Shown here: in pieces, positions 1 to 49,937 of the stretch | Layout of the letters: the number at the start of each line of letters is the position of its first letter | Position numbering within the stretch: position 1 is the stretch's first letter | Virus record (IMG/VR): IMGVR_UViG_3300031911_000002 | Span: 1-64,000 of that record | Strand: one strand, 5' to 3' | DNA from: a virus | DNA: 64,000 nt | Program-made: the position numbers and the translations under genes | Notes under the pieces: model-generated | Told to the model about the DNA's origin: nothing | What the model saw: only the letters and a program-made list of their open reading frames with translations | The model's database searches: none

Positions 1-842
1 TCCGGCTGAGCAAGGGCACGAGCAAGCTGAACCTGCCTCGCTGGGTCACCCTGACCACGCAGCAGATGGTGGACCGGGGCGTCACCGTGGCCTGGAGGGA
101 CCGGCCCGTATACCGGTTCCGGCTGCCCGTACAGCAATCCGTGCAGGCACCCGAGGCGGACCTGCCGCTGGACCCGTACGTGCTCGGGGCCTGGCTGGGG
201 GACGGCTCGTCCGAGGGAAGCCGGTTCACCTGCCACCCGGACGATATGCAGATCATGGACGAGATCCGGGCCGCCGGGATCCCGGTCCGCAAGACCGGGA
301 AGTCCCCGCTCTCCTGGACTCTCGGGGACGGGACGCACCGGAAGGACGGCACGGCCGTCAGCGCCCGTCTGAGGGCTCTCGGGGTGCTTGGGGGCAAGCA
401 CGTACCCGAGGCGTACCTGACGGCTTCAGCGGGGCAGAGGCTGGCGCTCTTGCAGGGTCTGATGGACACGGACGGGTTCGCTTCGGCGGGCCAGGGGCAG
501 GCAGAGTTCTGCACGACACGCCGGACCCTGGCGGACGCGGTGCTGTACCTGGCCAGGTCCCTGGGGTGGAAGGCCACGGTCAAGGAAGGCCGGGCCACCC
601 TGGACGGCCGGGACTGCGGGCCGAAGTGGCGTGTCATGTGGACGCCCGGCCCGGACGGGATGATCCCGTTCCGGCTGAAGCGCAAGGCGGACCGTATCCG
701 GGCCAGCCGGTCCCGGATACGGCCGACTGAGCCGAGCATCGTGTCCATCGAACGGGTGGAGTCCCGGCCGGTGCGCTGCATCACGGTGGACCGGGATGAC
801 GCGCTGTACCTGGCGGGCCGGGACCTGGTCCCGACGCACAAC
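1..842 (+). mobile_element. Intein with LAGLIDADG homing endonuclease (N-terminus outside window)
   Basis: Two LAGLIDADG-like blocks (DPYVLGAWLGDG, LLQGLMDTDG) and the C-terminal splice junction LYLAGRDLVPTHN/S, with Ser+1 at 843-845. The position fits insertion in the helicase Walker A (GK/S). Confidence 0.9.
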
Positions 843-3800
843 AGCACGGTCTACGACGTGTGCGCGATGGTGCTCGGCAAGTACCACGTGCAGGTCAGCG
901 ACCGGGTCATCCTCGGGGCCGCCAGTGACAACCACCCGACCGAGATCATGGACCTGCTCGGGGCGCGGTACGCGGTCCTGGAGGAGACCCCGGAGGCGAG
1001 GCGCCTGGACACCAACCGGGCCAAGAAGCTGGCGGGCACGCGGGAGATCACCGGCCGCCGGATCCGGCAGGACCCTGTGACCTTCGAGGCCACCCACAGC
1101 CTGTTCATCAACTCCAACCACAAGCCCCTGGTGGACGAGACGGACCACGGCACGTGGAGGCGCCTCGCCCTGATGGTGTGGCCGCACACCTACCGGAAGC
1201 GTCAGGAGGACCTCAGGGGGCCGAACGACCGCCTGGGGGACCCGACGCTGCGCCTGCGGCTCAAGGAGGACCCGCAGGCGCGGGAGGCCGCTCTGGCGTG
1301 GATCGCGGAGGGCGCGCGGCGCTGGTACGAGATGGACCGGATCATGCCGCCGGTCCCGGAGCGGGTGGAGGAGGACACCCTCGCGTGGCGCAAGGAGAGC
1401 GACCCCGTGCTCAGCTTCGCCGACGAGCACCTCCAGTTCGACCTCGACGCCTGCATCGCCGGACAGGAACTACGGAGCGTATTCAACGAGTGGCTCGTCA
1501 AGGTCAAGGGAGCGCGCGAGTGGGGCGACAAGACGTTCCTCGCGCGCTTCCAGGGGCACGACGCGATGACCACTCATTCGGTGGTCTACAAGGTCGTCAA
1601 GAACCCTCAGCGGCTGTCCTCGCGGGAGGGCGGCGAGGGGCCGAAGACGGGGACCGTCCGGGCGTGGCTCGGGCTGAAGTGGGCGACCGGAGGCGACGAT
1701 TCCGGAGAAGGTAACGAGGAGGTAAAAGACCCGTTCGGAGGGGGTGACACCAAGATCGGTTACAGCGGTTACACGTCGCCGGTTAACGGGAAGATTCCCT
1801 ATCGCATAGCCGTTAACTTTGGAAGTGTAACCGGTGTAACCGGACCGGAGTCCGCTTCTGAAACGATCTCCGATCCGGCCCCCGAGGAGTACCCGGACGA
1901 CCCCTTCGCAGAGGCGGACCCGGAGCCCTCCCCGGCCCCCTCCCTCCCCGTCCTGCGGGGCGCGGTCGGGTGGGACCTGGAGACCCCCTCGGCCAAGCAG
2001 CTGTTTACGTTCCGTAGCGACGAGGCGGCCCCGTACGCCCGGCTGTGCGGCGTGGTCGACGAGGACGGGCAGCGGGTGATCGTCAACAGCCCCGAGGAGC
2101 TGATCACGCTCCTGGAGCGCGCGCCGGTCATCCACGCCCACAACGGCTTCCGGTTCGACCTGATGGCGCTGGCGTGGCACCACGGTGCCGACTACGACCG
2201 GCTGGCGGCCAAGCTGTGGGACACCTACGTGGACGCGACCGTGCTCGACCCTCCGGGCGCCAAGGGACAGAAACCGTGGGCGAACGAGGGGTACTACGGG
2301 CTGGACCAGGTGGCGGAGCGTCTCGGCCTGCCCGGCAAGACGGACCGCCTCCCCGAGCTGGCCAAGGAGTTCGCCTCCCCCGGCCTGACCGGCAGGGAGG
2401 CGGAGGAGGACGGCTACGGCCGCATCCCCGTGGACAACGAGCGCTACCGGTCGTACCTGATGGGAGACCTGGGGGCACAGCAGAGCGTCGGCCAGAGGAT
2501 GCTCTCCGTGCCGGAGAGGATGGACTACCGGCGCCGGGAGCAGAGGGTGGCGCACATCCAGAACCGGATGACCCTGTCCGGCTGGAAGGTGGACGTCCCG
2601 CTCCTCGACCGCCTGGTGCGTGAGGAGCAGGACAAGGTGGCGGAGTCCCTCGCGTGGCTGCACGAGAACGCCGGGGTGCCTCTGACCGAGACCAGGACCC
2701 GTGGCCGGAGAGCGGCCAAGGAGACCTACGAGGTGCCCCGCAAGAGCCCACTGGGCTCGAACGCGGGCAAGGAGGCTCTCATCCGTGCCTTCGCCGAACG
2801 GGGCGCCTACTCGGTGCCCCGGACCGAGTCCGGCGTCCTCGCCCTGAACAAGGACGCGCTCGGGGAGGGCTCGTACATGGTCGGCAAGGGCGGCCGGGGA
2901 CAGCTGCGGCCGGGGATGCTCAACCCCCGCGTCCTGGCCACGTTCGCCGACCGGGGAGCCGACGTGGAGGCCATCCGTGAGCTGTGCGACCACATCAAGC
3001 TGGTGACCACCTCGGTGCAGAAGTACGCCGAGATCCAGCAGCACCTGATCGGGGACCGGGTCCACGCTCACGTCGGCGAGACCCAGGGATCCCGCCGATG
3101 GGCCATGGTCAAGCCCTCGGTCACCAACATGGGCAAGCGGGGCGGCAAGGTCGCGCAGAGGGCGCCCATGATCGCCGACGACGGGTGCGTGCTGATCGCG
3201 TTCGACTTCGATCAGGTCGACATGCGCGCGTTCGCCGGGCACTGCGGTGACCCGGCGTACGTGGGGATGTTCGTGCGGGACGAGGACCCCCACAGCATGA
3301 TCGCCGACATGGTGTTCGGCCGCCACGACGGCGAGTGGCGTGAGCGGGCCAAGGCGTCCGGCCACGGCTGGAACTACGGCCTGAGCGTGAACGGCCTGGT
3401 CAACTCCGGCATCGAGCGGGAGCTGGCGGAGCGGTTCGACGCCGGTATGAACGAGGGGTACCCGGTGCTGTGCTCCTGGCGCTCGGACGTCCGGGCACAG
3501 GGCGAGGCCGGTCAGCTCCTGGACAACGGCTTCGGCGCCCTGATGCGCTGCGACCCCCACCGTGCCTACACCCAGGCACCGGCACTGATGGGCCAGGGCA
3601 CCGCTCGGGACATCATGTGTGAGGGGCTGCTGCGGCTGCCGGAGGAATACATCCCGTGGCTGCGGGGCGTGGTGCACGACGAGGCCGTGCTCAGCGTGCC
3701 GGAGGACCGGGTGGAGGAGTGCATCGCCACCGTGACGGCCGCCTTCACGATGGACCTCGCGGAGATCACAGGGGGGCGCCTGACGAGCGTCCCGATCAAG

Positions 3801-3854
3801 GCGGGCGCGAGCAGGCCCGGACACAACTGGGCTGCCTGCTACGCCAAGGACTGA
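1..3854 (+). CDS. Primase/SF3 (D5/P4-like) helicase - family A DNA polymerase fusion, 5'-truncated by the window, intein-containing
   Basis: The frame is open to the window edge. After the intein come helicase motifs (RYAVLEET, LFINSNHKP, GTWRRL), 3'-5' exonuclease motifs (GWDLET, HNGFRFD, WDT) and PolA motifs A (DFDQVDMR), B (RAKASGHGWNYG) and C (VHDE). Confidence 0.88.
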   Translation, partial: RLSKGTSKLNLPRWVTLTTQQMVDRGVTVAWRDRPVYRFRLPVQQSVQAPEADLPLDPYVLGAWLGDGSSEGSRFTCHPDDMQIMDEIRAAGIPVRKTGKSPLSWTLGDGTHRKDGTAVSARLRALGVLGGKHVPEAYLTASAGQRLALLQGLMDTDGFASAGQGQAEFCTTRRTLADAVLYLARSLGWKATVKEGRATLDGRDCGPKWRVMWTPGPDGMIPFRLKRKADRIRASRSRIRPTEPSIVSIERVESRPVRCITVDRDDALYLAGRDLVPTHNSTVYDVCAMVLGKYHVQVSDRVILGAASDNHPTEIMDLLGARYAVLEETPEARRLDTNRAKKLAGTREITGRRIRQDPVTFEATHSLFINSNHKPLVDETDHGTWRRLALMVWPHTYRKRQEDLRGPNDRLGDPTLRLRLKEDPQAREAALAWIAEGARRWYEMDRIMPPVPERVEEDTLAWRKESDPVLSFADEHLQFDLDACIAGQELRSVFNEWLVKVKGAREWGDKTFLARFQGHDAMTTHSVVYKVVKNPQRLSSREGGEGPKTGTVRAWLGLKWATGGDDSGEGNEEVKDPFGGGDTKIGYSGYTSPVNGKIPYRIAVNFGSVTGVTGPESASETISDPAPEEYPDDPFAEADPEPSPAPSLPVLRGAVGWDLETPSAKQLFTFRSDEAAPYARLCGVVDEDGQRVIVNSPEELITLLERAPVIHAHNGFRFDLMALAWHHGADYDRLAAKLWDTYVDATVLDPPGAKGQKPWANEGYYGLDQVAERLGLPGKTDRLPELAKEFASPGLTGREAEEDGYGRIPVDNERYRSYLMGDLGAQQSVGQRMLSVPERMDYRRREQRVAHIQNRMTLSGWKVDVPLLDRLVREEQDKVAESLAWLHENAGVPLTETRTRGRRAAKETYEVPRKSPLGSNAGKEALIRAFAERGAYSVPRTESGVLALNKDALGEGSYMVGKGGRGQLRPGMLNPRVLATFADRGADVEAIRELCDHIKLVTTSVQKYAEIQQHLIGDRVHAHVGETQGSRRWAMVKPSVTNMGKRGGKVAQRAPMIADDGCVLIAFDFDQVDMRAFAGHCGDPAYVGMFVRDEDPHSMIADMVFGRHDGEWRERAKASGHGWNYGLSVNGLVNSGIERELAERFDAGMNEGYPVLCSWRSDVRAQGEAGQLLDNGFGALMRCDPHRAYTQAPALMGQGTARDIMCEGLLRLPEEYIPWLRGVVHDEAVLSVPEDRVEECIATVTAAFTMDLAEITGGRLTSVPIKAGASRPGHNWAACYAKD
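1757..1842. repeat. Symmetric inverted iteron-like structure inside the helicase-PolA linker (candidate origin)
   Basis: CGGTTACAg CGGTTACAC-N7-GTTAACGG-N20-CCGTTAAC-N7-GTGTAACCG GTGTAACCG; locally AT-rich. Confidence 0.65.
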
Positions 3855-3870
3855 CCAAGGAGGAGAGATC

Positions 3871-4275
3871 ATGATCAAGGTTCAGTGCGACATCGGCGGG
3901 GAGCAGGCGGAGACCTCGGGGGTGTTCCTGCCGCTCCCCCGGATGGGGGTCCCGTTCTTCAAGCCGGAGCTGCCCGACGGCTGGCGCCGGATGGAGGTCC
4001 CGATGCCGGACGGGTCCGCCTGGGAGCGCCACGCCTGCCCGGCGTGCCTGCGCAGGCTGTGGGAACTGTTCGGGGTCCCGGACCCGGAGGCGGAGCGGTG
4101 CGTGGCCTGCGGGCACACCCCGAAGGACCACGAGGGGCACCTGGGCTGCACCTCTACGGTCACGAAGGTGACCGGGGAGGGCAACGATGCGGTGCACTCG
4201 ACCGGCGACTGCCCGTGCGTCCTGTCCCCGGTCGAGTGTCTCGACGAGACCTGGATGCCGGAGGCGAGGGCATGA
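3871..4275 (+). CDS. Hypothetical Cys/His-rich protein
   Basis: AGGAGG RBS; CxxC motifs; follows the polymerase gene. Confidence 0.65.
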   Translation: MIKVQCDIGGEQAETSGVFLPLPRMGVPFFKPELPDGWRRMEVPMPDGSAWERHACPACLRRLWELFGVPDPEAERCVACGHTPKDHEGHLGCTSTVTKVTGEGNDAVHSTGDCPCVLSPVECLDETWMPEARA

Positions 4276-4772
4276 CCGAGGACGAGATCCTGGGGATCCT
4301 GATCGGCCCGGTCGTGCTCGGCCTCGTCGCCCTGCTCACCGACCTCCTCGTCGACGGGACGAGCCGGTGCCTGTGGCCGAGGGGACTGCGCTGGTTCCCT
4401 CCGGCCTGGGAGGCACTCAAGGGCACGCTGCGGTACGCCCTGCTGCGGATCTTTTGGCCGGAAAAGGCGCTGAGGCGTCCCGGCCGCCGTCTGCGGGAGC
4501 TGGAGAGCCTGGACCAGACCTACCGCACGTGGGCCGGGTCCGGGGTCCCCCAGTGGTACGGCGACGACCGCCGGGGGCACTGGGCGCCCTGTACGGCCGT
4601 ACGGGCGCCGCAGACGACTGATCTGACCGAGGACCTGGAGCGCATCCTCAGCGCCCTGGAGACGGCCGCCGGGGCGTGTCCCTGCGGCTACACGGACGAG
4701 TGCCCGGTCCACTGCGGCAGCGGGCACGAGAGCGGGCAGTGCCCCAAGCCGGGCGTGCTGTACGACCGGTGA
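4272..4772 (+). CDS. Hypothetical membrane-anchored protein
   Basis: ATGA overlap with the upstream stop; N-terminal hydrophobic helix; Cys-rich C-terminus. Confidence 0.6.
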   Translation: MTEDEILGILIGPVVLGLVALLTDLLVDGTSRCLWPRGLRWFPPAWEALKGTLRYALLRIFWPEKALRRPGRRLRELESLDQTYRTWAGSGVPQWYGDDRRGHWAPCTAVRAPQTTDLTEDLERILSALETAAGACPCGYTDECPVHCGSGHESGQCPKPGVLYDR

Positions 4773-4843
4773 CGGAGCGGTTCGGCCCAAGCCGGACCGG
4801 GTACACAGAACTACGTAGACCTACGCGGAAGGGAACACAGACC

Positions 4844-5581
4844 ATGGACCAGAGGATCAAGGCTCTGCGGGACGCACTGGCGGACCTCGGCCAGGACACC
4901 CGGCAGTGGACCGACGAGGATCTGCTCAGCCGGGTCCTGTCCGGCGGGCCGTCCCGGCTCCCGGCGTGGGCGGACCGGCCGTGGGCCGACCGCCTCGACA
5001 CGCTGCGGGCGGAGCTGACCCGTGAGGGCCAGGACGTCTCCGGTCTGAGCGACGGGGAGCTGCTGGGCCTGGAGCTGAACCGGGCGTGGGCCGAAGCCCG
5101 GCGTCACGAGAACGCTTACGCGTCCCTGCTCCAGCACCGGGTCCGGGACGAGCGCGCGGTGCGCACAGCCGCACGGCAGGCGGCCGTCGCCGACATCACG
5201 GCGCAGGCGGGTTTGTACATCCAGGTCATCATCCGGCAGAACGCGTCCCACCTGGAGGGCGTGATCTACCGGGCGGAGAACCTCCCCGAGGACGGGCGCG
5301 CCACGCCGACCGCCGTCAAGGAGCTGCGGGAGGCGGCGCTGCGGTCGCGGTGGATGCTGCGGGGGCTGGCCAGTGACTCCGCCATCGCGCGGGCCGGGCG
5401 GGACGAGGACGTACAGCACCTGGAGGCCCTCAAGGCGGAGATCCGCCGCATGACGCGGGCCGTCAAGGCGGCCGGAAGGCGCCTGCACGACGAGACCGCC
5501 GTTTTCCACGCGGGGATGTGCGAGTGCCCCGGCTGTGAGCTGCTCCGGTCCGTCCACGACACGGAGGGCGAGCAGCCGTGA
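4844..5581 (+). CDS. Hypothetical protein
   Basis: Start MDQRIK after a purine-rich leader; GC3-rich codons; C-terminal CECPGC. Confidence 0.6.
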   Translation: MDQRIKALRDALADLGQDTRQWTDEDLLSRVLSGGPSRLPAWADRPWADRLDTLRAELTREGQDVSGLSDGELLGLELNRAWAEARRHENAYASLLQHRVRDERAVRTAARQAAVADITAQAGLYIQVIIRQNASHLEGVIYRAENLPEDGRATPTAVKELREAALRSRWMLRGLASDSAIARAGRDEDVQHLEALKAEIRRMTRAVKAAGRRLHDETAVFHAGMCECPGCELLRSVHDTEGEQP

Positions 5582-5838
5582 TCCGCAAGATCCTCAAAGG
5601 CGTGCTCAGGGCCGCCATCGCGCAGCCCTGGGACTACGTCGGCGAGGGCGCGCCCCACGAGCGCGAGGTGCGGTGGTCCCCGGACGGCCGGTACCTCGCG
5701 CTGTGGGACCCCGGCAACGAGCCCTGGTTCGTGATCGACACGGCGGCCGTCCGGGGCCGGTTCGTCTCGACCCCCGACCTCGACCGGCACGCCGACGACT
5801 GGGTGCCGTTCCTTCCCCTGGAGGATCCCGATGAGTGA
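5578..5838 (+). CDS. Hypothetical protein
   Basis: GTGA overlap with the upstream stop. Confidence 0.55.
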   Translation: MIRKILKGVLRAAIAQPWDYVGEGAPHEREVRWSPDGRYLALWDPGNEPWFVIDTAAVRGRFVSTPDLDRHADDWVPFLPLEDPDE

Positions 5839-6061
5839 GCGCGAGACGACCGACGTCCGGGGGCGCACCGTGCGCGCCGGGGACACCGTCGGAGGAGCCG
5901 TGTTCGGCCGGTACCCGGACACCGTCTGGGGCACGGTCCTCAAGGTGACCCCGTCCGGATCGGTCCGGGTGGAGGTCGAGCACGGCAGCGGAGGGTACCG
6001 GCCCTCCCCCGGCGACGTGTTGCTGCTCCCCAGGCACAGGATCTTCAAGCTGGACGACTGA
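5831..6061 (+). CDS. Hypothetical small beta-barrel (SH3/KOW-like) protein
   Basis: GGAGG RBS; DVRGRTVRAGDTV pattern. Confidence 0.55.
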   Translation: MSERETTDVRGRTVRAGDTVGGAVFGRYPDTVWGTVLKVTPSGSVRVEVEHGSGGYRPSPGDVLLLPRHRIFKLDD

Positions 6062-6149
6062 CCGGCGGCCGGTGCTCCCACAGGGCACCGGCCGCTCCGT
6101 GCTGGGGCATCATGAGCCCTACCGATCAACGCACACGGAGGAACGATCT

Positions 6150-6941
6150 ATGACCACGGAGTACATCGAGACCCGCATGGTCCCCCTCGCGCAGCTCCAG
6201 CCGTACCCCGGCAACGCGCGCCACGGTGACCGGGGCGTGCTCGTGGAGTCGCTGGAGGAGAACGGCCAGTACCGCTCCCTGGTGGTCCGGCGCACCGACG
6301 ACGGCGAGCACGTGGTGCTGTGCGGCAACAACACCCTGGCCGCCCTGGAGGAGCGAGGCGACGAGGCGGCGCGCTGCGAGATCGTCCGCTGCGACGACGC
6401 GACCGCCCTGCGGGTGAACCTCGTCGACAACGCCTCCAACGACAAGGCGACGTACGACGACGAGGCACGGGCCCGCCTGGTGGCCCTGCTGGACGGCGAG
6501 CTGACCGGCTCCGGCTACACCGACGAGGAGGCGGACGCGCTCCTGGCCCAGTACGAGGAGCCGGAGGTCACCGCGTACGAGGAGCCGGACGTCAGCTACA
6601 ACGACGACGAGGAGGAGCGCGAGGCACGCATCGCCTCCCGTGGCGGGCACGAGTCGTCCCCGATGGTCAGCCGGGGCATCCGGGACGTGCTCCTGGTGCT
6701 CCCCAACGAGCAGGCCGACGAACTGGGCCGGATCATCATGCGCCTGCGCAAAGACTGGGGATCCCTCCCGCAGGGAGAGATCATCCTCAAGGGGATGCGG
6801 GTGGCTGTGACGGCGATGGACGACACCCCGGACGGCGACGACGTCGTGAGCGGGGCGCACCTGCGCAAGGCGGCCGACGAGGTCTACGGCGCTCCGGAGG
6901 AGGTGGCAGCCGGTGACCACGGCGCAGACGACCCGGCGTGA
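6150..6941 (+). CDS. ParB/Srx N-terminal domain protein
   Basis: LQPYPGNARHGD..L.ESLEENGQYRSLVV..VLCGN..L.A..NLVDN pattern of phage ParB-like proteins; GGAGG RBS. Confidence 0.8.
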   Translation: MTTEYIETRMVPLAQLQPYPGNARHGDRGVLVESLEENGQYRSLVVRRTDDGEHVVLCGNNTLAALEERGDEAARCEIVRCDDATALRVNLVDNASNDKATYDDEARARLVALLDGELTGSGYTDEEADALLAQYEEPEVTAYEEPDVSYNDDEEEREARIASRGGHESSPMVSRGIRDVLLVLPNEQADELGRIIMRLRKDWGSLPQGEIILKGMRVAVTAMDDTPDGDDVVSGAHLRKAADEVYGAPEEVAAGDHGADDPA

Positions 6942-7836
6942 GGACTACTACCGCTTCCACGAGATCCAGGTGGAGTGCGGGGACATGGACCCGGCGTACC
7001 CGGTCCTGCGGGACATAGCCGACCGGTGGACGTCGTCCGTGGAACAGCGGCTGTGGCTGGTGATCGTCTTCACGGCCTACTACCACCTGGGCTCCGCCCT
7101 GCGTGCGTTTGCGGAGACTTCCAACCCACGGCACGCCTGCGGCGCGGCACTCGACCTCCCGTGCGCCACGGAGCGCCGGGGGCACTGGTACAGGCCCCGT
7201 CTGCGCAGGCACCTCGCGGCGGTGCAGGAGATCGCGCGCGGCCCCGGAGGGCTGGAGCAGTGGCTGCTCTCCGACCTCAACGGCACCCCCGAGGAGAACT
7301 GGGCTCAGGTGCAGCACCGCGCCGGGCTGCTCCCCGGCAACGGCCGGTGGGCGTCCTTCAAGACCACGGAGCTGGTCAAGTCGGTGCTCGGGGTGGAGCT
7401 GCGGGCGCCCGACATGCAGCACGCGCACTCCTCCGGCCCCCGGCACGGGCTGGACCTGCTGTACGCCAACCTGCCTACCGGCAACGACCGGGCCGACATC
7501 GCCGTGCTCGACCGGGTCAGTGCGCAGCTGGTCGACGACATGAGGCGCCATGGGCTGAAGGTCTCCGTGGAGACCGCCGAGACCTCGCTGTGCGACTTCC
7601 ACTCCATGGTGAACGGCAGGTACTACCCCGGCCGGGACATCGACCAGATGCAGCTCCAGCTGGACGCGGTCCCCTCGGTCCTCGCCGACTACGCCTGGCG
7701 CGCCCGGCGCCGGACCCTCCCCCTGCACTACCTCGGGGAGGTCACGGGGCGCTCCGGCGTCGACCGCCAGGCCATGATCTGCTACCGCACCACGGGCCGC
7801 ATCCCGGTCCGGGACACCTCGGGAGAACTGCGATGA
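6913..7836 (+). CDS. aGPT-Pplase clade 2 / amino acid:DNA transferase
   Basis: DMDPAY, WL....AYYH, ERRGH, GNGRWASFK..E, SGPRHGL and ETSLCDF..GRYYPGRDI motifs; kinase and TET/JBP neighbours. Confidence 0.8.
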   Translation: MTTAQTTRREDYYRFHEIQVECGDMDPAYPVLRDIADRWTSSVEQRLWLVIVFTAYYHLGSALRAFAETSNPRHACGAALDLPCATERRGHWYRPRLRRHLAAVQEIARGPGGLEQWLLSDLNGTPEENWAQVQHRAGLLPGNGRWASFKTTELVKSVLGVELRAPDMQHAHSSGPRHGLDLLYANLPTGNDRADIAVLDRVSAQLVDDMRRHGLKVSVETAETSLCDFHSMVNGRYYPGRDIDQMQLQLDAVPSVLADYAWRARRRTLPLHYLGEVTGRSGVDRQAMICYRTTGRIPVRDTSGELR

Positions 7837-8675
7837 AGATCCTTGTCGCCGGAGCGGGCATCGCCGGGTCCGTCCTCACACACATGCTCCGGGAGCGCGG
7901 GCACGAGGTCACCCTGATCGACCCGTGGCCCCGCCGGTCCGCGTCCCACTGCGCGTACGCCTACCTGCGCACCGCCTGGTTCAAGGGGGCCGACAAGCAC
8001 CGGGTCCGGGAGTCTCTGGCCTGGTACGAGCGCCGGGGCGACATCGTCACCCGCACCGGCTCCGTGACCACCGGCCGGTCCGAGGACGACACGCTGAAGG
8101 TCCGGAACCAGTCGGATCACGTCCTGGTCCACCCGTCCCGTCCACTGCTCGTCCCGGACATCCTGTGGGGCGTGACGCGGTACAGGGAGGTTCCGGGTGG
8201 TGTGCTCGTCGACACGACCGAGGGCCTGCCCCTCGACGCGCAGCACCTCGTGCTCGCCTGCGGAGCGGGGATGGACCGCTGGTACACCGGTTCCCCGGTC
8301 TACGGCGGAGTGTACGAGTGCAAGAGCTACCGGATGATCACGCCGCTGAAGCTGCTGCGCGTCACGGACCGCCTCACGCACGTGGCGGCCGATGACGGCG
8401 CGGTCACCCGCACCGCCGCGTCCAAGGGGCGCACCCCCGAGGAGGCACGGGCGCGGGCCGACAAGATCCTGGAGCTGATGATGGACCGGGGAATGATCGC
8501 CTGCACCCGGCGGTGGACCTACCGGGCCGGGGTGCGGTGGCAGTCGATCGACCGGGCCCCCGTGGCGGACCGGATCAGCGAGCACGTGTGGGCCCTGACC
8601 GGGTTCGCCCGCAACGGCTACGCCATGGCGCCCTCGTACGCGAACGACCTCGTCACCAAGCTGGAGGCGGCATGA
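7833..8675 (+). CDS. FAD-dependent oxidoreductase/lyase (DAO/glycine-oxidase fold)
   Basis: Rossmann motif VAGAGIAG..HEVTLID, LVLACG, C-terminal TGFARNGYAMAP; ATGA overlap. Confidence 0.82.
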   Translation: MKILVAGAGIAGSVLTHMLRERGHEVTLIDPWPRRSASHCAYAYLRTAWFKGADKHRVRESLAWYERRGDIVTRTGSVTTGRSEDDTLKVRNQSDHVLVHPSRPLLVPDILWGVTRYREVPGGVLVDTTEGLPLDAQHLVLACGAGMDRWYTGSPVYGGVYECKSYRMITPLKLLRVTDRLTHVAADDGAVTRTAASKGRTPEEARARADKILELMMDRGMIACTRRWTYRAGVRWQSIDRAPVADRISEHVWALTGFARNGYAMAPSYANDLVTKLEAA

Positions 8676-9286
8676 TCTCGAACCTGCTGTACATCTGCGG
8701 CGCCCCCGGCGTCGGCAAGTCGACCGTCTCCAGGGCGCTGCGGGAGCCGTGGGACTGCGAGGTGATGCGCCACACGGCGGTCCCGCACATACAGCTGCGC
8801 CACCCCGTCAGCGGCACGCCGCAGGGTCTGGAGCTGGGACTGCCCCGTGACGACTTCCCCGGCACTGACGCCCTGAGCATGTCGATCGCCCCGGCCGCCC
8901 TCCAGTTCCTCAGCTCCAGCTACGCCTCGTTCGCGACGGGCGAGGGGGCCCGCCTCGCCACGCGCCCGTTCCTGGAGGCCCTCGCGGCGCGAGGCGTGGC
9001 TGTAACGCTCGTACGACTGGCGGCCGACCCGGAGCTGCTGGAGGAGCGCTGGAGGGCGCGAGGCGCCAAGCAGAGCCCTTCCTGGCGCAAGGGGGCCGAC
9101 ACGCGGGCGCGCCGTCTCGGGGAGTGGTTCAGCGACGCCATGGCGGACCTCCCCGGCCCGTGCCTGTACCTCGACATGGACGTCACGGAGATGAGCGTGG
9201 CCGACACGGCGGACCGGATCCGGGACGCCTTCCCCCACGTGGTGCCCCTCGGCACCGATCCGGCGCAGCGCAAGGTGGGAGACTGA
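8672..9286 (+). CDS. P-loop kinase, putative 5-hydroxymethyluracil-DNA kinase
   Basis: Walker A GAPGVGKST, FPGTDALSMS, EGARLA, ERWRARG; context with aGPT-Pplase2. Confidence 0.75.
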   Translation: MISNLLYICGAPGVGKSTVSRALREPWDCEVMRHTAVPHIQLRHPVSGTPQGLELGLPRDDFPGTDALSMSIAPAALQFLSSSYASFATGEGARLATRPFLEALAARGVAVTLVRLAADPELLEERWRARGAKQSPSWRKGADTRARRLGEWFSDAMADLPGPCLYLDMDVTEMSVADTADRIRDAFPHVVPLGTDPAQRKVGD

Positions 9287-9289
9287 ACC

Positions 9290-10186
9290 ATGATCTCCAT
9301 TCGTGTCCGGTCCCGGATCCCCCGCGAGGAGCTGGACCTCAAGGTGGGGAAGGTCGTCGGCGACAGCGCCTACAACGTGCTGCTCACCGGACCGACCCGC
9401 GTGTTCATGCCCTCGGGCAAGCTGCTGTGCGTCTACCTCCCCGGAGCGATGCGGGGCGTGGTGCAGCCGGAGCACTACGAGATCCTTCACAGCCTCCGCA
9501 AGGACGTCGTCAGCTACAACCGGGGGCAGGCATCCGGCAGCGAGCGCGTGAAGGTCGGCACCACCAAGCGCTCGTACGCGATGGGGGTCAGCTCAGGCAT
9601 CCTCGGCTCGTTCGACCCCTCGGGGACCTTCAAGTTCTGCCGCCTCACGGCCTGGACCGGCAAGCACATGCCCCAGTGGCAGGCGCTCCAGCCGGTGTTC
9701 CAGCGGGTCGCGGACGCGATGCGGGACCACGTGCCGGACCGGTACGCGGCGCAGATGGAGGAGATCGACGCGACGCACCCCGACTGGGTCATCCCCGGCA
9801 CGCCCTTCACCACAGTGACGGTCAACAACACGTACCCGACTGGCGTGCACTGTGACCGGGGTGACCTCGACAAGGGATTCAGCACGATCTTCACGCTGCG
9901 CCGGGGCAGCTACTCCGGCGGGATCTTCACGTTCCCGGAGTACAGGGTGGCGGTCGACCTCAAAGACGACGATCTCATCCTGATGGACGCTCACCAGTGG
10001 CACGGCAACACCCCGATCATCTGCGCCTGCGGGGATCGCCGGACGTCGTGCTGCGAGACCTGCGGGGCCGAGCGGATCTCCGTGGTGAGCTACATGCGGG
10101 CCGCCATGACACGCTGCGGGAGCGAGGCGGAGGAGACCGAGCGGGCCATCCGGCACCGTGAGCAGCACAAAGGCGTGATCCGCTAA
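9290..10186 (+). CDS. TET/JBP-family 2OG-Fe(II) dioxygenase
   Basis: PFTTVTVN..TGVHCDRGD (HxD), YSGG...FPEY, HQWHGNT (H) and RISVVSYMR (R); Cys-rich insert. Confidence 0.87.
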   Translation: MISIRVRSRIPREELDLKVGKVVGDSAYNVLLTGPTRVFMPSGKLLCVYLPGAMRGVVQPEHYEILHSLRKDVVSYNRGQASGSERVKVGTTKRSYAMGVSSGILGSFDPSGTFKFCRLTAWTGKHMPQWQALQPVFQRVADAMRDHVPDRYAAQMEEIDATHPDWVIPGTPFTTVTVNNTYPTGVHCDRGDLDKGFSTIFTLRRGSYSGGIFTFPEYRVAVDLKDDDLILMDAHQWHGNTPIICACGDRRTSCCETCGAERISVVSYMRAAMTRCGSEAEETERAIRHREQHKGVIR

Positions 10187-10207
10187 GGCTGATGGGAGGT
10201 AAGGATC

Positions 10208-10861
10208 ATGGCAACACCGTGGGACTCCGCTGATCACGCCTCCGTGGAGGCTCGTCGTTGGCGCGCGATCCAGCTGGCCAACCGGGGTCTGACGCACCGG
10301 CAGATCGCCGAGGAGCTGCAAGGGATGTACCGGGAGGCGTCCCGCGACGGGGACAGCCTCAGCCTGGTGTCGATCACGAACATGGTCGGCGTCGACATCC
10401 ACCGGGCGCTCAAGGAGTACCGCAAGCGCACCGACAAGGAGATCGAGGACCGGATCTCGGCGCAGCTCATGCGGTTCGACGACCTGCGCCGGAGCCTGTA
10501 CGGGATCATGGCCCGCCGTCACCCCGTGCTGCATCAGGGGAAGATCGTCAAGGACGACGACGACGTTCCGCTGCGGGATGACGGGCCGGTGCTCGCCGCG
10601 ATCTCACAGCTGATCAGCCTGGAGGACCGGCAGGCACGTGTGGAGGGCACCTACGCACGGGAGAAGCTGGACATCGCCCTGGACACGCGAGTGGAGAACG
10701 AGGCGCAGATGGCTGTGGAGGCGATTCTCGCGGGGGCCGATGCGATCGGCCTGGAGCCGGTGCAGCGCCAGCGCATGCTGGAGGCAGCCGGGGCCCGGCT
10801 GAGGGTCATCGAGGGCGAAGTGGTGCAGCGGAGCGACGAGGACGGGGAGCACGATGGGTAG
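10208..10861 (+). CDS. Terminase small subunit-like HTH protein
   Basis: N-terminal HTH (RAIQLANRGLTHRQIAEEL), helical body, upstream of TerL. Confidence 0.65.
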   Translation: MATPWDSADHASVEARRWRAIQLANRGLTHRQIAEELQGMYREASRDGDSLSLVSITNMVGVDIHRALKEYRKRTDKEIEDRISAQLMRFDDLRRSLYGIMARRHPVLHQGKIVKDDDDVPLRDDGPVLAAISQLISLEDRQARVEGTYAREKLDIALDTRVENEAQMAVEAILAGADAIGLEPVQRQRMLEAAGARLRVIEGEVVQRSDEDGEHDG

Positions 10862-11123
10862 CAGGCTGATCGACCCGCTGGCAGCGGCGCGCGAGGACGA
10901 GGTGAACCGGGGGATGCGGCTCAGCGGGTCGCCGGTCCGATTCTGCTTCCACCCGGACACGACCCTGGAGCACCTGCCCGGCGAGGGCACGCGCCGGTCG
11001 TGCGACTACTGCGCGACGGCCGTGTTCACGTACCCCGGTAGCTGCGCCACGGATCTGACGCCGTGGGCGTACCTCCCGGATGGATATACGGCGGCCGACG
11101 AGCCTCCCGTTACTGGTCGGTAG
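10854..11123 (+). CDS. Hypothetical protein
   Basis: Overlapping start; its 3' end runs into dispersed repeat copy 1. Confidence 0.45.
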   Translation: MGSRLIDPLAAAREDEVNRGMRLSGSPVRFCFHPDTTLEHLPGEGTRRSCDYCATAVFTYPGSCATDLTPWAYLPDGYTAADEPPVTGR

Positions 11124-11284
11124 CAACTACTGGCCCGACCTGGCCGAACAACGAACTCGCGGCGGGTGTCCGAGGAGACAGGGCACCCGCCGTTCGCTGC
11201 GGAGACGGCAACCTCGTGACGCCGCTACGCTACGCACCGGTAGATTTAGCTAAAGCGACTCCGGGTAACCGTATAGCTATACGG
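11076..11284 (+). repeat. Dispersed 209-bp element, copy 1
   Basis: Reverse complement of the copies at 26455, 49346 and 60068; bounded by 16-bp quasi-palindromes. Confidence 0.92.
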
Positions 11285-11310
11285 TCCGGCGGATGGAACA
11301 GGGAGCAACG

Positions 11311-12345
11311 ATGAAGGTCCTTCTGACCGGGGCGTCCGGGTTCGTCGGCAGCCACGTGCTGCGCCACATCCTCGTGAACACCGACTGGAGCGTGGTCGCC
11401 CCGGTCACGTTCCGGCACAAGGGCCTCCCGGCCCGCATCGCCTCGGCCGTCTGCGACCGGCCGGACTGGACGAGCCGGGTGGACACGGTCCACTGGGACC
11501 TGCGGTCGGTCGCGGACCCGCTCACCCTGCTCACGGTCGACGACTGTGACGTGATCATGAACGTGGCCAGCGAGTCGCACGTGGACCGGAGCATCGCCCA
11601 CCCCGGCCCGTTCATCCGGAACAACATCGACCTGATGCTCACCGTGCTGGAGGTCGCGCGGGTGGTCCGGCCGAAGCTGCTGCTCCAGATGAGCACCGAC
11701 GAGGTCTACGGGCCCGCCTACGGGGACCACAGGCACCACGAGTGGGAGGCCATCCTCCCCTCCAACCCCTACAGCGCGTCCAAGGCGGCCCAGGAGGCCA
11801 TCGCGATCAGCTACTGGCGCACCTACGGGGTGCCGCTCGTCCTGACCAACACCATGAACATCATCGGGGAGATGCAGGACCCCGAGAAGTTCCTCCCCAA
11901 GATCGTGAGGGGGCTGCGGGACCGGACCCCCGTCCCGGTCCACGTCGGCCCCGACGGCAACTCCGGCTCCCGGTTCTACCTGCACGCGCGCAACCTGGCG
12001 GACGCGTGGGTGTTCCTCGCGGAGCAGTACGCGGCGAACGGACCGGCCCTGTACGACGAGGGCGCGGAGCGGCCGGAGCGGTTCCACATCGTGGGGGAGC
12101 GGGAGATCTCGAACACCCGCCTGGTGCACTACGTCGGCCGGATCATGGGCCTGGACCGGTCCGAGACGGACGGCCTGATCCAGCCGGTGGGGTTCCACGC
12201 CACCCGGCCCGGTCATGATCTGCGCTACGCGCTGGACGGCTCCCTGATCGCCGGTCTCGGCTGGAGCGCCCCTGTGCCATTCGACGAGGGCCTGCGGCGC
12301 ACCGTGGCGTGGACCCTGGATCACCCCGAGTGGCTGGACCTCTGA
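11311..12345 (+). CDS. rmlB: dTDP-glucose 4,6-dehydratase-like extended SDR
   Basis: TGASGFVG, ASESHVDRSI, STDEVYG, PYSASK, RPGHDLRYALD. Confidence 0.85.
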   Translation: MKVLLTGASGFVGSHVLRHILVNTDWSVVAPVTFRHKGLPARIASAVCDRPDWTSRVDTVHWDLRSVADPLTLLTVDDCDVIMNVASESHVDRSIAHPGPFIRNNIDLMLTVLEVARVVRPKLLLQMSTDEVYGPAYGDHRHHEWEAILPSNPYSASKAAQEAIAISYWRTYGVPLVLTNTMNIIGEMQDPEKFLPKIVRGLRDRTPVPVHVGPDGNSGSRFYLHARNLADAWVFLAEQYAANGPALYDEGAERPERFHIVGEREISNTRLVHYVGRIMGLDRSETDGLIQPVGFHATRPGHDLRYALDGSLIAGLGWSAPVPFDEGLRRTVAWTLDHPEWLDL

Positions 12346-12362
12346 CGGGTTTGGGGATCTCC

Positions 12363-12378
12363 CGGTTTAGGTAAATAC
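12363..12378. promoter_or_regulatory. AT-rich quasi-palindromic operator-like site
   Basis: CGGTTTAGGTAAATAC; one of ten similar intergenic 16-mers. Confidence 0.6.
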
Positions 12379-12508
12379 CCCTCAGAGTGACGTCGGACCG
12401 CAGGATGGCGATGGGTCTGCGGCCCGACGTCCGGCGCCCTCCGCCCGGCCGGGTCGTGGGTCCCCGGCGACGGGGGAGGGCGCCCTCCAACCGTGACCAA
12501 GGACCAGG

Positions 12509-13330
12509 ATGCCCAGCGAAGCCATGAACACTCCTCCTGAACGTCCGTATCTCTCGCCCCTGGAGCGCCGGTACCTCTGGCTGCTGACCCAGGGCCACAC
12601 CGTGGGCGAGGCCGAGAAGATCCTCGGTATAGGGCGCACGCCCACCCTCGGGATGCGGGTCCGGGACAAGCTGGGGGCCGCGACCACGGCCCAGGCCACG
12701 TACAGGGCGGCCGTCCTCCAGCTGGTGGGCCCGGATCCCGAATGCGGCACGATGACCGGCTACCGCAGGCACAAGGGGCGCCAGGAGGACGTCTGCGAGG
12801 CGTGCCGTACGGAGTTCACCAGCTTCGTGGACCGGACCGGAGGTCTGTCGGCCCACCGTCGGCCGCAGCTCACGGAACCGGAGCTGTACCTGCTGCGCGC
12901 GTTCGACGCGGGCGCCAACTACAAAGCCCTGGCGCAGCGGTGGCGGATCAGCACCCGGACCCTGGACAAGGTGCGGGCCAGCCTGTACCGGAAGCTGGAC
13001 GTCCTGCACCACCCGCTGAAGGCACGCCGACAGGCGGCCCTGGAGGTGGGCCAGCGCCTGGGGTTCCTGCGCCCGGACCCGCTGGGGGCCCCGCCCCCGC
13101 CCCCTCCGGCCGAACCGTCCCCGCTCACCGAGCTGGAGGTGCACACTCTCGCGACGGTCGCCGACGGGACGTCCCTGTCACAGGCGGGCCGGAAGCTGGG
13201 CATCCCCGCGTCCTCCGTGGGGTCCCGTCTCGCGAGGGTCTACATCAAGCTGGACGTGGCGCACCACGGCCGGGGCCGGTGCCGACAGGCGGCCGTCAGG
13301 GAGGCCCGGCGCAGAGGGTACGAGGTCTGA
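12509..13330 (+). CDS. Transcription regulator with three LuxR-like HTH units and a Cys/His Zn motif
   Basis: LSPLE/LTEPE/LTELE repeats, each followed by an HTH and (Y)xKL; CGT..GYRRH...CEAC. Confidence 0.7.
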   Translation: MPSEAMNTPPERPYLSPLERRYLWLLTQGHTVGEAEKILGIGRTPTLGMRVRDKLGAATTAQATYRAAVLQLVGPDPECGTMTGYRRHKGRQEDVCEACRTEFTSFVDRTGGLSAHRRPQLTEPELYLLRAFDAGANYKALAQRWRISTRTLDKVRASLYRKLDVLHHPLKARRQAALEVGQRLGFLRPDPLGAPPPPPPAEPSPLTELEVHTLATVADGTSLSQAGRKLGIPASSVGSRLARVYIKLDVAHHGRGRCRQAAVREARRRGYEV

Positions 13331-13369
13331 CCGAGCGCAGCCCCGGCGGCCGTGGGGCATACTCCCGGC

Positions 13370-14761
13370 ATGGGTGATCTACAGCGTGCGGGAAGCCTGG
13401 CAGCGGACCTGCTGGCGCACCATGCCCGTCTCGCCACCCAGCCCCGGTGGACGCCTCTGGCCCACCAGGTGCCCCCGCCGGGGGACTGGTACGGGTGGCT
13501 GCTGCTCGCCGGACGAGGCGCAGGCAAGACCGACGCCTGTGCGCGCTACGTGCACGAGCACGTCAGCGGACCGCCCTGCCTCCCCGGACCCGTCCCCCAC
13601 TGGGTCGGCATCATCGCCCCGACCCTGGGGGACGCGGCGACGTCCTGCTTCAGCGGGCCCTCGGGACTCAGCGCCCACAGCCCCGGCGCCAAGATGATCA
13701 CGTCCCCCGGCGGCACGATCGTCAAGTGGCCCAACGGCTCCATCGCCAAGCTGTTCGGCGCCAACACCGAGGAGCAGACCGAACGTCTGCGCTCCGGAGG
13801 CAACCGGTGCCTGGCGTGGCTGGAGGAGATGGCCGCGTGGCGCTACCTCGACGACACCTGGGCCCAGATGCGGTTCGGTCTGCGCTCCGGTCCCCGGCCG
13901 CACTGGGTGGCCTCCACCACGCCCAAGCCCCGCCCCCTGATCAAGAAGCTGGCAACCGGCGGCGTGCGCAGCGTGGTGCTCACCAAGGCGTCCATGTACG
14001 ACAACCCCCACCTGCCGGAGCACATCCGGGACGCACTCCTGGAGGAGTACGAGGGCACCGACCTCGGCCGCCAGGAGCTGATGGCCGAGATCCTCGACGA
14101 GGACAGCAACGCGCTGTGGACCCGCGAGTGGCTCAGCCGGTCCCGGCTTTCGGTCACGGACCTGGAGCGGATCAAGCTGTCCCGGATCACGGTGGGGGTC
14201 GACCCGTCCGGCGGCGCCGGGGAGCAGGGCATCGTCGTCGTCGGCAAGGCGATGCAGGACCACGTCCGTACGCGCACCGTGCAGGGCGAGGAGCGTGAGA
14301 CCAGGACCTCCCTGGCCCACGGGTACGTCCTCGGGGACCGCACCGTGCACCTCAAGCCGGAGGGCTGGGGCCGGGCGGCCGTCCTCGCCGCCAAGGAGTT
14401 CGACGCCGACGACATCGCCGTGGAGATCAACTTCGGCGGAGAGATGGCCGTCTCTACCATCCGGGCCGCAGCCGACGCGGAGGGCATGAACATCCCGATC
14501 AGGATCGTGCGCGCGACACGGGGCAAGGTGGTCCGGGCGCAGCCCGTCAGCGCGCTCACGGCGCAGAACCGCTGGCACATGGTGGGGACGCACCAGGCTC
14601 TGGAGGACCAGCTCTGCACCTGGTACCCGGAGCTGGACTGGAGCCCCGACCGGCTGGACGCGATGGTGTGGCCCGCGTGGCACAACCGGATCGTCAAGCT
14701 GACCGGCACCGTGGCCCAGGGCGGGGGCGGCATGTCGCAGATGGCGCGTACGCTGGGTTAA
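13370..14761 (+). CDS. terL: Terminase large subunit
   Basis: LLAGRGAGKT Walker A, WLEEMA Walker B, STTPKP, LGRQEL, VGVDP, EINFGG, SPDRLDA. Confidence 0.93.
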   Translation: MGDLQRAGSLAADLLAHHARLATQPRWTPLAHQVPPPGDWYGWLLLAGRGAGKTDACARYVHEHVSGPPCLPGPVPHWVGIIAPTLGDAATSCFSGPSGLSAHSPGAKMITSPGGTIVKWPNGSIAKLFGANTEEQTERLRSGGNRCLAWLEEMAAWRYLDDTWAQMRFGLRSGPRPHWVASTTPKPRPLIKKLATGGVRSVVLTKASMYDNPHLPEHIRDALLEEYEGTDLGRQELMAEILDEDSNALWTREWLSRSRLSVTDLERIKLSRITVGVDPSGGAGEQGIVVVGKAMQDHVRTRTVQGEERETRTSLAHGYVLGDRTVHLKPEGWGRAAVLAAKEFDADDIAVEINFGGEMAVSTIRAAADAEGMNIPIRIVRATRGKVVRAQPVSALTAQNRWHMVGTHQALEDQLCTWYPELDWSPDRLDAMVWPAWHNRIVKLTGTVAQGGGGMSQMARTLG

Positions 14762-14770
14762 CGTAAACCC

Positions 14771-14950
14771 ATGCCTCTCACCCTCACGCTCGCCCTGGTC
14801 ATCTTCGGAGCGGGTCTCCTGATCGGCCGGAAGCAGCCCATGGTGCTCGCGGCGGCCGTGGCGCTCGCCCTCGGTCTCTCCATCGCCGACGAACCGGCCG
14901 GAGTGTTCGTGCATACTCTGCTCGACGGGGCAGCCCGTCTCGTCCTGTAA
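14771..14950 (+). CDS. Small membrane protein (59 aa)
   Basis: MPLTLTLALVIFGAGLL...; two hydrophobic segments; fills the gap (below the ORF-track cutoff). Confidence 0.5.
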   Translation: MPLTLTLALVIFGAGLLIGRKQPMVLAAAVALALGLSIADEPAGVFVHTLLDGAARLVL

Positions 14951-14967
14951 CCTCCGGGAGGACTTCC

Positions 14968-15330
14968 ATGGGGAAGATCTACGGCCGCGAACCGGCCGTC
15001 TGGCTGGGTGCGCTCGGCGCGCTGTGGCAGATCCTGTCCGCGTTCGGGCTCAACTTTGACCCGATGCTCCAGTCCGTCGTCACCGCTGCCGTCTCGACCC
15101 TGTTCGGCTTCATCGTCGCCGTGCAGGTGCACGACGGGATCTTCGCTGCGCTCACGGGCCTGATCACCGCCGGTACGTCCCTCGTCTCGTACTTCGCCCT
15201 GGACTGGTCCTCCGAGACCCAGGCCAAGTTCGTCGGCGGCCTGATGATCATCCTCGGCATCTGGGTACGGGACAAGGTGGTCGCCCCGGTGCCCGCCGAC
15301 GTGTCCCCTCCGGGCCGACTCGTCGCCTGA
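14968..15330 (+). CDS. Holin-like 4-TM membrane protein
   Basis: GREPA N-terminus and VRDKVVAP C-terminus typical of actinophage holins; GGAGG RBS. Confidence 0.65.
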   Translation: MGKIYGREPAVWLGALGALWQILSAFGLNFDPMLQSVVTAAVSTLFGFIVAVQVHDGIFAALTGLITAGTSLVSYFALDWSSETQAKFVGGLMIILGIWVRDKVVAPVPADVSPPGRLVA

Positions 15331-38833: not shown

Positions 38834-39042
38834 GCGCCGCCGCACAGATCAGGGAGATGGTGGAGTCCGTGGTCCGCGCCCTCACGGGCGAGACGGACCG
38901 GAGACTGGACGCCCTGGAAAAGGACGTGGCCGACCTGAAGGACCGGCTGAGCCCTCCGGAAAAGGCGGCGCGGGCGCAGACCGCCAGGGGCTCCGGCTCC
39001 GCGTCCCGGCCCCGCACCGTGAAGGATCCGGGCACGCCGTGA
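38830..39042 (+). CDS. Small coiled-coil protein
   Basis: GTGA overlaps on both sides. Confidence 0.5.
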   Translation: MSAAAQIREMVESVVRALTGETDRRLDALEKDVADLKDRLSPPEKAARAQTARGSGSASRPRTVKDPGTP

Positions 39043-49568: not shown

Positions 49569-49937
49569 TCACGATCCGGACACCTCGCCCTTGCCCCGCT
49601 TCCGCAGGGTGGTGACCGGCTCCAGGGCACGGACGGAGTCGGCGAATAGACCCGTGGCACTGAAGCGGACCCGACGGACCTCCGTGGGCATCACGGCCCC
49701 CTCCGCACGCTTCCCCGGCAGTCCGCCTTCCGGGACCCGGCGCCACTGCGGGGTGAACGACCCGAAGTTGGTGAGGCTGACGCGGTACCCGGCGGCCACG
49801 TGGCGGCCGATGATGTCGAGCACGGCGTGCAGAACGTCCTCGGACGTCGCCGTCCGGAGGTCCACCTCGACGTCCAGCAGCTCCGCCAGCCGGGTGAAGT
49901 TGAGGTTGGTCTCAGGGCGTGCGATCTTCTTTTCCAT
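49569..49937 (-). CDS. HU/IHF-like DNA-binding protein
   Basis: VLHAVLDII...V..G.RVSLTNFGSF...R...VRF.A..LF. Confidence 0.75.
   Translation of the reverse strand: MEKKIARPETNLNFTRLAELLDVEVDLRTATSEDVLHAVLDIIGRHVAAGYRVSLTNFGSFTPQWRRVPEGGLPGKRAEGAVMPTEVRRVRFSATGLFADSVRALEPVTTLRKRGKGEVSGS

Follow-up and report, generated by a model that had tools for sequence, protein, structure and literature searches.

The window considered here covers positions 1-64,000 of a 75,955-base virus record, IMGVR_UViG_3300031911_000002 (~70% G+C), and its subject is a putative thymine hypermodification operon of an actinomycete phage with Streptomyces-like hosts. At positions 6150-10186 five plus-strand genes are tightly packed, without intergenic space:

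6150..6941, + strand: ParB-like protein, presumed activator of the dioxygenase (PHROG 723 'ParB-like partition protein', E 1e-37)
6913..7836, + strand: amino-acid:DNA transferase (AADT/ADDT, formerly aGPT-Pplase2), probably glycine-transferring (PF18724, E 2.4e-18, 67.1 bits against a cut-off of 26.2)
7833..8675, + strand: compact 280-aa DAO-type flavin adenine dinucleotide (FAD) enzyme, homologue of the PaMx11 gp47 N-alpha-GlyT lyase (NGTO) (PF01266, E 4e-14)
8672..9286, + strand: P-loop kinase of the Ploopntkinase3 family, presumed 5-hydroxymethyl-2'-deoxyuridine (5-hmdU) DNA kinase (PF18751, E 2e-23)
9290..10186, + strand: TET/JBP Fe(II)/2-oxoglutarate dioxygenase (5mYOX), presumed thymine dioxygenase (PF12851, E 3.9e-17, 62.4 bits against a cut-off of 34.9)

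The ParB-like reading frame is open from GTG 6072, with a likely start at ATG 6150, which has GGAGGA 7 nt ahead and gives the MTTEY start common to relatives. The transferase start, GTG 6913, is preceded by GGAGGAGG and lies within a 29-nt overlap with the ParB gene; ATGA stop/start overlaps follow at 7833 and 8672, and the gap ahead of 9290 measures 3 nt. The original prediction had described the transferase, flavoenzyme, kinase and dioxygenase genes as a tightly coupled set, and open reading frames and Pfam matches confirm all four at these positions on the plus strand, just as the overlaps and the short gap bear out their coupling. It had overlooked the ParB-like gene directly upstream, which belongs to the module. 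Among 66 related IMG/VR loci, collected by a scan for TET proteins 45-88% identical and typed for content by tblastn with proteins of the window and its relatives, the order transferase, flavoenzyme, kinase, TET recurs in 12, and the arrangement is therefore non-random.

This gene set is consistent with a fully post-replicative thymine hypermodification pathway that would end in free 5-aminomethyl-2'-deoxyuridine (5-NmdU), a reading we hold with moderate confidence; what the products do, that glycine is the amino acid used and which base results are predictions, drawn from the genes present and absent, their homologies, and the conservation of genes and residues. The TET/JBP dioxygenase, aided by the ParB-like protein, would convert the thymine methyl group in polymerised phage DNA to 5-hydroxymethyluracil (5hmU), whose hydroxyl the P-loop kinase would phosphorylate, giving 5-phosphomethyluracil (5-PmU). 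In the transferase, Cys227 is proposed to attack C6, with expulsion of the phosphate and addition of the glycine alpha-amine, yielding N-alpha-glycinylthymidine. The flavoenzyme would then oxidise the N-C-alpha bond, and hydrolysis of the imine would give glyoxylate and 5-NmdU, so that the pathway would end in a free primary amine, on a fraction of thymines that depends on sequence. Protection from host nucleases is the probable purpose of the modified base. The route suggested originally, from T through 5hmU and 5-PmU to an amino-acid-substituted T and possibly on to free 5-aminomethyl-dU, finds support in that each step has a matching candidate enzyme.

The reference for the last two steps is Pseudomonas phage PaMx11, whose pathway to 5-acetylaminomethyl-dU was described by Lee et al. 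2021 (PMC8989533) and whose enzymes have solved structures (Wen et al. 2024, PMC11472151; PDB 8z2m, 8z2o, 8z79). The transferase family (A4) aligns with PaMx11 gp46, which shares its AADT clade with phage M6 gp51 (hhalign 95.7% to gp46, E 1e-8, 226 columns), and its profile matches 25qc_A, 'Amino acid:DNA transferase domain' (1e-17), and 8z2m, 'Glycinyltransferase' (4.9e-6), in the PDB. When the 12 gp46 pocket residues given in PMC11472151 are mapped by family-profile hhalign, nine are identical (D24, Y51, E92, W146, K150, E243, T244, C247 and D262, which in window numbering and the same order are D26, Y57, E87, W146, K150, E223, T224, C227 and D242) and two are changed conservatively (Y47 to F53, K261 to R241). 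Cys247 of gp46 is the nucleophile, E243/T244 are metal ligands, and W146, K150 and D24 contact glycine (PMC11472151); their counterparts C227, E223/T224, W146, K150 and D26 are invariant in 11/11 family members. Glycine is probably the transferred nucleophile, to judge solely from these conserved contacts and the partner lyase.

The flavoenzyme family (A1) aligns with PaMx11 gp47 at hhalign 96.9% (E 1.3e-10, 262 columns). Its best solved sequences are 8z2o and 8z79, 'Flavin-dependent lyase', matched over the full length (residues 3-274 against 5-285, E 8.5e-10), and its AlphaFold2 model (pLDDT 88) reaches Foldseek TM-scores of 0.76-0.79, in both directions, to the same two structures; glycine oxidases, sarcosine oxidase, CmiS2 and MnmC are the next Foldseek neighbours. 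Of the gp47 base cage W51/F52/K268, the first two residues are identical here as W49 and F50 and the third is R260, while R242, the proposed carboxylate contact, is retained as R235. A second flavoenzyme branch among the relatives (L025, L040, L042, L047 and L048) keeps A-P-Y-R, like gp47.

The dioxygenase has the intact H-x-D...H triad and 2-oxoglutarate-binding Arg of the ParB-dependent T-dioxygenase subclass of O'Toole et al. (5mYOX clade C1): H187-x-D189, H235, H238 and R262 are invariant in 24/24 aligned relatives, with a Cys cluster (C245/C247/C255/C258) placed between the distal His and the Arg. Behind an invariant C276 come 22 further residues, modelled by AlphaFold as a helix at 279-293; such a C-terminal extension beyond the last Cys conserved in both subclasses is a mark of the ParB-dependent subclass (PMC13229309). 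The sequence profile of the TET family gave no match at E<=0.01 among solved chains, and a fold search was used instead, in which the AlphaFold2 model (pLDDT 92.3) matched CcTet, NgTet1 and human TET2 at E ~5e-12. The enzyme is presumed to act on thymine in DNA.

The ParB-like protein has no Pfam match at E<=0.01. The profile of its family (A2, 22 sequences) matches solved Noc/Spo0J/ParB chains (best E 1.9e-11), and these matches are confined to profile positions 9-101, the nucleotide-binding domain; no solved chain matches past position 101, and a conserved C-terminal block is visible in the family. In the ParB partners of clade C1 the helix-turn-helix domain for DNA binding is missing and a dimerisation domain at the C-terminus is retained (PMC13229309). 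The N-x-R box is retained, with N48 invariant, whereas all 22 members have G-N-(H/N)-T where GERR would stand (G85, N86 and T88 invariant or nearly so), with GNNT in the window protein. According to PMC13229309, the residues for binding and hydrolysis of cytidine triphosphate (CTP) in partition ParBs are largely conserved; their GERR part is not conserved here. This ParB lineage seems, from its alignment, to have dispensed with part of the CTP site, and a partner lacking the GERR arginines would fit a published puzzle, namely that mutating CTP-site residues barely affects ParB activation of the dioxygenase (PMC13229309). Prediction of a ParB-TET complex, run three times without controls, gave scores of 0.00, 0.71 and 0.00 and is evidence on neither side of the question of binding. 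Far from the module, at L003 890-1723 (record 63890-64723, minus strand), lies another gene with a ParB fold (DUF6551, E 1.4e-12).

The kinase, with a GAPGVGKST Walker A motif, is the weakest link of the pathway by homology, and gene position is its strongest argument. Its family (A5) is distantly related to PaMx11 gp49, a proven 5-hmdU DNA kinase (5-HMUDK) grouped with M6 gp54 (hhalign 89.9% to gp49, E 1.7e-6, 117 columns), and a Ploopntkinase3 kinase adjoins the TET gene in 52/66 related loci. For the Ploopntkinase3 family, hitherto uncharacterised, the proposed pathway would point to a likely substrate.

The post-replicative character of the pathway and its uncapped end both depend on enzymes that are missing. 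Third-position GC gene calling misses genes with upstream-extending open reading frames, and absences were therefore based on six-frame family searches instead of the list of frames. Across the whole 75,955-base record these searches gave no match to PF00303 (thymidylate synthase), PF02511 (ThyX) or PF00145 (C5-methyltransferase), nor to four GNAT families (PF00583, PF13508, PF13302 and PF13673), and tblastn of PaMx11 gp48 and gp51 against the record found nothing (best E 1.7 and 0.082). Of thymidylate-synthase homologues, C5-methyltransferases and GNAT proteins the original prediction had seen none in the window; this holds for the window and for the entire closed record. A deoxyuridine monophosphate (dUMP) hydroxymethylase outside the window, which would have told against the predicted route, is now excluded for the closed record and for all 21 related phage records searched, none of which has PF00303, including the nine that are at least 90% complete. 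As for controls, the PF00303 search was positive for PaMx11 and Rhizobium phage RHph_TM26 and negative for the complete genome of Mycobacterium phage Phelemich (2/3 positive). With no acetyltransferase encoded, the pathway probably ends at the free primary amine.

An incomplete record hiding a thymidylate-synthase gene was considered and rejected. The record is labelled linear, with a CheckV estimate of 92% completeness. A 235-base stretch at its start recurs at its end with 99.6% identity and one mismatch (window 1-235 against record 75721-75955, or L003 12721-12955), and the two end frames form one continuous gene, given that intein-free complete relatives map their primase and helicase parts head to tail in a single frame. 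On these grounds the genome is closed or terminally redundant at ~75.7 kb, and nothing gene-sized is missing from it. The end-spanning frame itself, record 74154-75953 joined to window 3-3854, encodes a DUF3854/D5_N primase, a helicase and a family A DNA polymerase, the helicase being split by an intein of ~420 aa with LAGLIDADG motifs.

The related loci reveal how the module is assembled. The transferase and flavoenzyme pair occurs in 12/66 of them and a different ADDT transferase with a pyridoxal phosphate (PLP) enzyme (PF00291) in 22/66, L007 and L013 being examples of the latter; in the remaining loci TET stands either with the kinase, some of these also having ParB, or with ParB as sole partner. 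Of the IMG/VR loci with the flavoenzyme, 12/12 also have this transferase type, at 42-76% identity. Loci L011 and L013 are ~86% identical across the ParB gene and return to that level at the first base of the kinase gene, whereas between these flanks stand 1.8 kb and 2.7 kb with nothing in common; the window and L007 show the same breakpoints, at 6782 and 8685. Near-identical phages have swapped a two-gene cassette (transferase and flavin lyase against transferase and PLP enzyme) between fixed ParB and kinase-TET flanks, which puts breakpoints on the 'modular gene pool' proposed by Lee et al. (PMC8989533). In addition, an extra 284-aa protein with no assigned function lies between lyase and kinase at L005 1776-2627, and at L042 5296-6569 (also in L040, L047 and L048) transferase and lyase are separated by a 291-aa protein, likewise with no assigned function, and a low-molecular-weight phosphatase (PF01451); such genes inside transferase-flavoenzyme cassettes may point to further chemistry.

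Carriers extend to genome collections and to cultured phages. Relatives are present in Streptomyces, Actinomadura and Haloechinothrix assemblies, and the identical gene order is found in Streptomyces africanus NRRL B-24243, on a contig of 92,743 bases. In the cultured actinophages identity to the window proteins is 27-46%. In Mycobacterium phages Phelemich and Reprobate the full set occupies genes 1-5 ahead of the terminase, the Phelemich order being ParB-like, weak Tet_JBP, ADDT, FAD enzyme, Ploopntkinase3 and then terminase. Microbacterium phage Kozie has, as genes 1-4, Tet_JBP, ADDT, an FAD enzyme (hhalign 97.5% to the window flavoenzyme family) and Ploopntkinase3, again followed by the terminase, and Microbacterium phage MO526 gives a match with the transferase. 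TET thus stands ahead of the transferase in Phelemich/Reprobate and Kozie, whereas in the window it comes last. Gordonia phages (Wooper and others) and Rhodococcus phage Tonitrus hold ParB, TET, transferase and kinase. Their genes, which GenBank labels ParB-like, Tet-like J-binding protein, aGPT-Pplase2 and DNA kinase in Wooper and Tonitrus, have been designated a thymidine hypermodification system (PMC11955845).

These lyase-less cultured phages share a conserved protein of ~290 aa encoded after the kinase, at L071 3054-3926 (Wooper gene 5) and L072 3761-4642 (Tonitrus gene 8). The Wooper protein has a weak Rossmann-like N-terminus only, and its Tonitrus counterpart has no Pfam match. The possibility that Wooper gp5 (290 aa) is a hidden lyase was rejected (hhalign 1.7%), and the protein is instead a candidate alternative tailoring enzyme.

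Several observations weigh against the proposed pathway as a whole or against single steps of it. The ParB-like protein lacks the GERR arginines, which makes its mode of action obscure. The kinase matches PF18751 and not PF18748, the family of the proven 5-hmdU DNA kinase, and PaMx11 gp49 itself matches PF18748 only weakly (E 0.002); gp50, the helical partner in PaMx11, matches PF18723, and no homologue of it was found in the record (best tblastn E 0.42). The Gordonia phages and Tonitrus carry this transferase type, at 42-46% identity, with no detectable flavoenzyme homologue, so the pairing of transferase and flavoenzyme is not obligatory. The remaining points concern the substrates of the two tailoring enzymes and lead to a different reading, in which the same TET-started, kinase-activated pathway attaches some nucleophile in place of glycine, or relies on another oxidation by the flavoenzyme, and the final base is not 5-aminomethyl-dU. 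Both enzymes have low identity to their PaMx11 counterparts, the transferase 23% and the flavoenzyme 19% over the profile alignment. The gp46 pocket residue E265 is Q245 here, and gp47 Y180 (DNA wedge), Q182 (base recognition) and Y244 have become R180, T182 and Q237, of which R180/T182 are common to the window flavoenzyme and its six closest relatives. The Trp/Lys/Asp contacts may be general to the transferase family instead of specific to glycine. Moreover, close relatives exchange the pair for a different transferase and a PLP enzyme, so the chemistry at this position is variable, and some loci with the same pair hold the extra genes described above. Such a departure from glycine chemistry nevertheless seems unlikely to us: the glycine contacts W146, K150 and D24 (gp46 numbering) and the proposed carboxylate-binding R242 are all retained, the nearest folds of the flavoenzyme oxidise glycine or N-substituted glycines, and the order of transferase and flavoenzyme equals that in PaMx11.

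The glycine-based pathway could also run as proposed and its product, 5-aminomethyl-dU, then be capped or extended by an unlinked phage or host enzyme, for instance by methylation (compare 5-methylaminomethyluridine, mnm5U, in tRNA) or glycosylation; capping independent of GNAT proteins, or further modification by unlinked genes, may occur. Domains listed as co-occurring with phage 5mYOX genes include glycosyltransferases, O-methyltransferases and sugar epimerases (PMC13229309), and the window encodes, at 53974-54627, a class I methyltransferase (PF13489, E 4e-7), at 60269-60961 a GT2 glycosyltransferase, at 39039-40136 a weak GT1-like protein and, at 11293-12345 and 52464-53432, two NAD-dependent sugar epimerase/dehydratases. 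These candidates, however, lie 1-50 kb off the operon, mostly on the opposite strand in a sugar-gene island, and we regard such capping as improbable. Sugar-gene islands of this kind in actinophages glycosylate virion proteins, and the genes in the window may act on virion proteins or on DNA. The one epimerase near the operon, at 11293, has stayed next to the module in relatives of both cassette types and therefore follows the phage backbone, not the chemistry.

That the dioxygenase instead acts on host-laid 5-methylcytosine (5mC), with kinase and transferase building a cytosine hypermodification, is very improbable: phage clade A/B TET/JBP enzymes do oxidise 5mC, with a kinase role on 5-hydroxymethylcytosine (5hmC) suggested for some contigs (PMC8256090), the tested phage T-dioxygenases also act on 5mC in vitro (PMC13229309), and a C5-methyltransferase occurs elsewhere in the genome in 5/21 related records, but there is none in the closed record and none beside the module in any relative examined, the downstream enzymes are homologous to thymidine-specific ones, the E/T metal site of gp46 binds thymine O4 (PMC11472151), and the ParB neighbour and C-terminal extension suit the T-dioxygenase subclass.

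Returning to the glycine-based pathway and its free amine, it is tempting to extend it from a single locus to a lineage comprising the window phage, the Streptomyces africanus NRRL B-24243 element, Mycobacterium phages Phelemich/Reprobate and Microbacterium phage Kozie. We tentatively suggest that these actinomycete phages may have un-acetylated 5-NmdU as their final base, made wholly on finished DNA with the nucleotide pool untouched, and that the transferase and its tailoring partner may act as a recombination unit. An uncapped amine is predicted for the whole lineage because the acetyltransferase family PF00583 is found in 0/14 records with the set of TET, transferase and flavoenzyme, a group that includes the complete genomes of two cultured phages and, at 90% completeness or more, three IMG/VR records; the same search recovers PaMx11 gp48 at E 2.6e-16. 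In the literature searched, 5-NmdU, a nucleoside of 257 u (PMC8989533) whose acetylated form has 299 u, is known solely as a PaMx11 intermediate and no report was found on the DNA composition of any carrier phage, and literature searches on 5-NmdU in actinophages, on Ploopntkinase3 and on DNA modification in Phelemich/Reprobate returned nothing relevant. If the suggestion is true, near-identical phages would switch DNA chemistry in one step, and their DNA would carry a free primary amine in the major groove.

Downstream of the operon, positions 10208-10861 encode a helix-turn-helix protein, probably the small terminase; next is the sugar epimerase/dehydratase, then a LuxR-type protein and finally the large terminase. 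The early-gene region includes, on the minus strand, a WYL-domain protein and an HU-like DNA-binding protein, at window 51416-52417 and 49569-49937. A promoter and terminator scan of 3500-15000 gave no promoter-like site and two terminator-like sites against 1.5 expected, which is uninformative for a high-GC actinophage. Megablast against GenBank phages found no near-identical DNA.

TET/JBP neighbourhoods of this kind were reportedly first predicted computationally by Iyer et al. in 2013. Thymidine hypermodification fed by a TET/JBP enzyme, which the original prediction had taken as novel, was already stated by Lee et al. 2021, who described metavirome contigs without a dUMP hydroxymethylase in which TET_JBP lies beside thymidine-hypermodifying genes and probably makes 5hmU in DNA (PMC8989533). 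Burke et al. 2021 reported T oxidation by one phage TET (PMC8256090), and O'Toole et al. (PNAS 2026) showed T-dioxygenase activity for two phage subclasses in vivo and in vitro (PMC13229309; preprint 10.1101/2025.08.14.668559). The window resembles 5mYOX clade C1 of that work (e.g. 5mYOX176/ParB176) in that TET/JBP adjoins a ParB homologue matching only the nucleotide-binding domain of partition ParBs, there is no C5-methyltransferase nearby, a P-loop kinase and an amino-acid:DNA transferase are linked, and a terminase is close. It differs in the ParB, with GNNT in place of GERR, and in its flavoenzyme: the main text of PMC13229309 has no occurrence of 'FAD' or 'flavin', while its Fig. 3, SI Fig. 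S3 and Dataset S10 may already include the contig itself or the link with the flavoenzyme.

With PaMx11 gp46-gp47-(gp48)-gp49 the locus shares the order transferase, flavin lyase, kinase and the overlapping genes, as well as full-length homology of transferase and lyase together with the catalytic Cys, metal ligands, glycine contacts, base cage W/F and carboxylate Arg. PaMx11, however, makes 5hmdU before replication through a thymidylate-synthase homologue, in place of which the window phage has TET and ParB; PaMx11 also has the GNAT protein gp48, of which the window phage has no counterpart, and the PaMx11 kinase belongs to a different family and has a helical partner, gp50, of which the window phage has no counterpart. 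The proposed lyase chemistry, cleavage of an N-carboxymethyl group, equals that of the MnmC FAD domain, which converts 5-carboxymethylaminomethyluridine (cmnm5U) to 5-aminomethyluridine (nm5U) in tRNA and whose structures 3pvc, 3awi and 3ps9 align with the flavoenzyme model (Foldseek E ~1e-12), but the substrate would be DNA here, and no methyltransferase domain is fused. The proposed TET step has its parallel in trypanosome JBP1/2, which hydroxylate thymine in DNA on the way to base J; here 5hmU would be phosphorylated and aminated, not glucosylated. The locus is thus not a new system and stands as a well-resolved further example of a published one. What it adds is the predicted free 5-NmdU as terminal base, the cassette boundaries, the GNNT ParB and the apparent use of a Ploopntkinase3 kinase. 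As a clean and complete example in a closed genome, it offers a specific prediction, an uncapped amine base, that can be checked in phages of culture collections.

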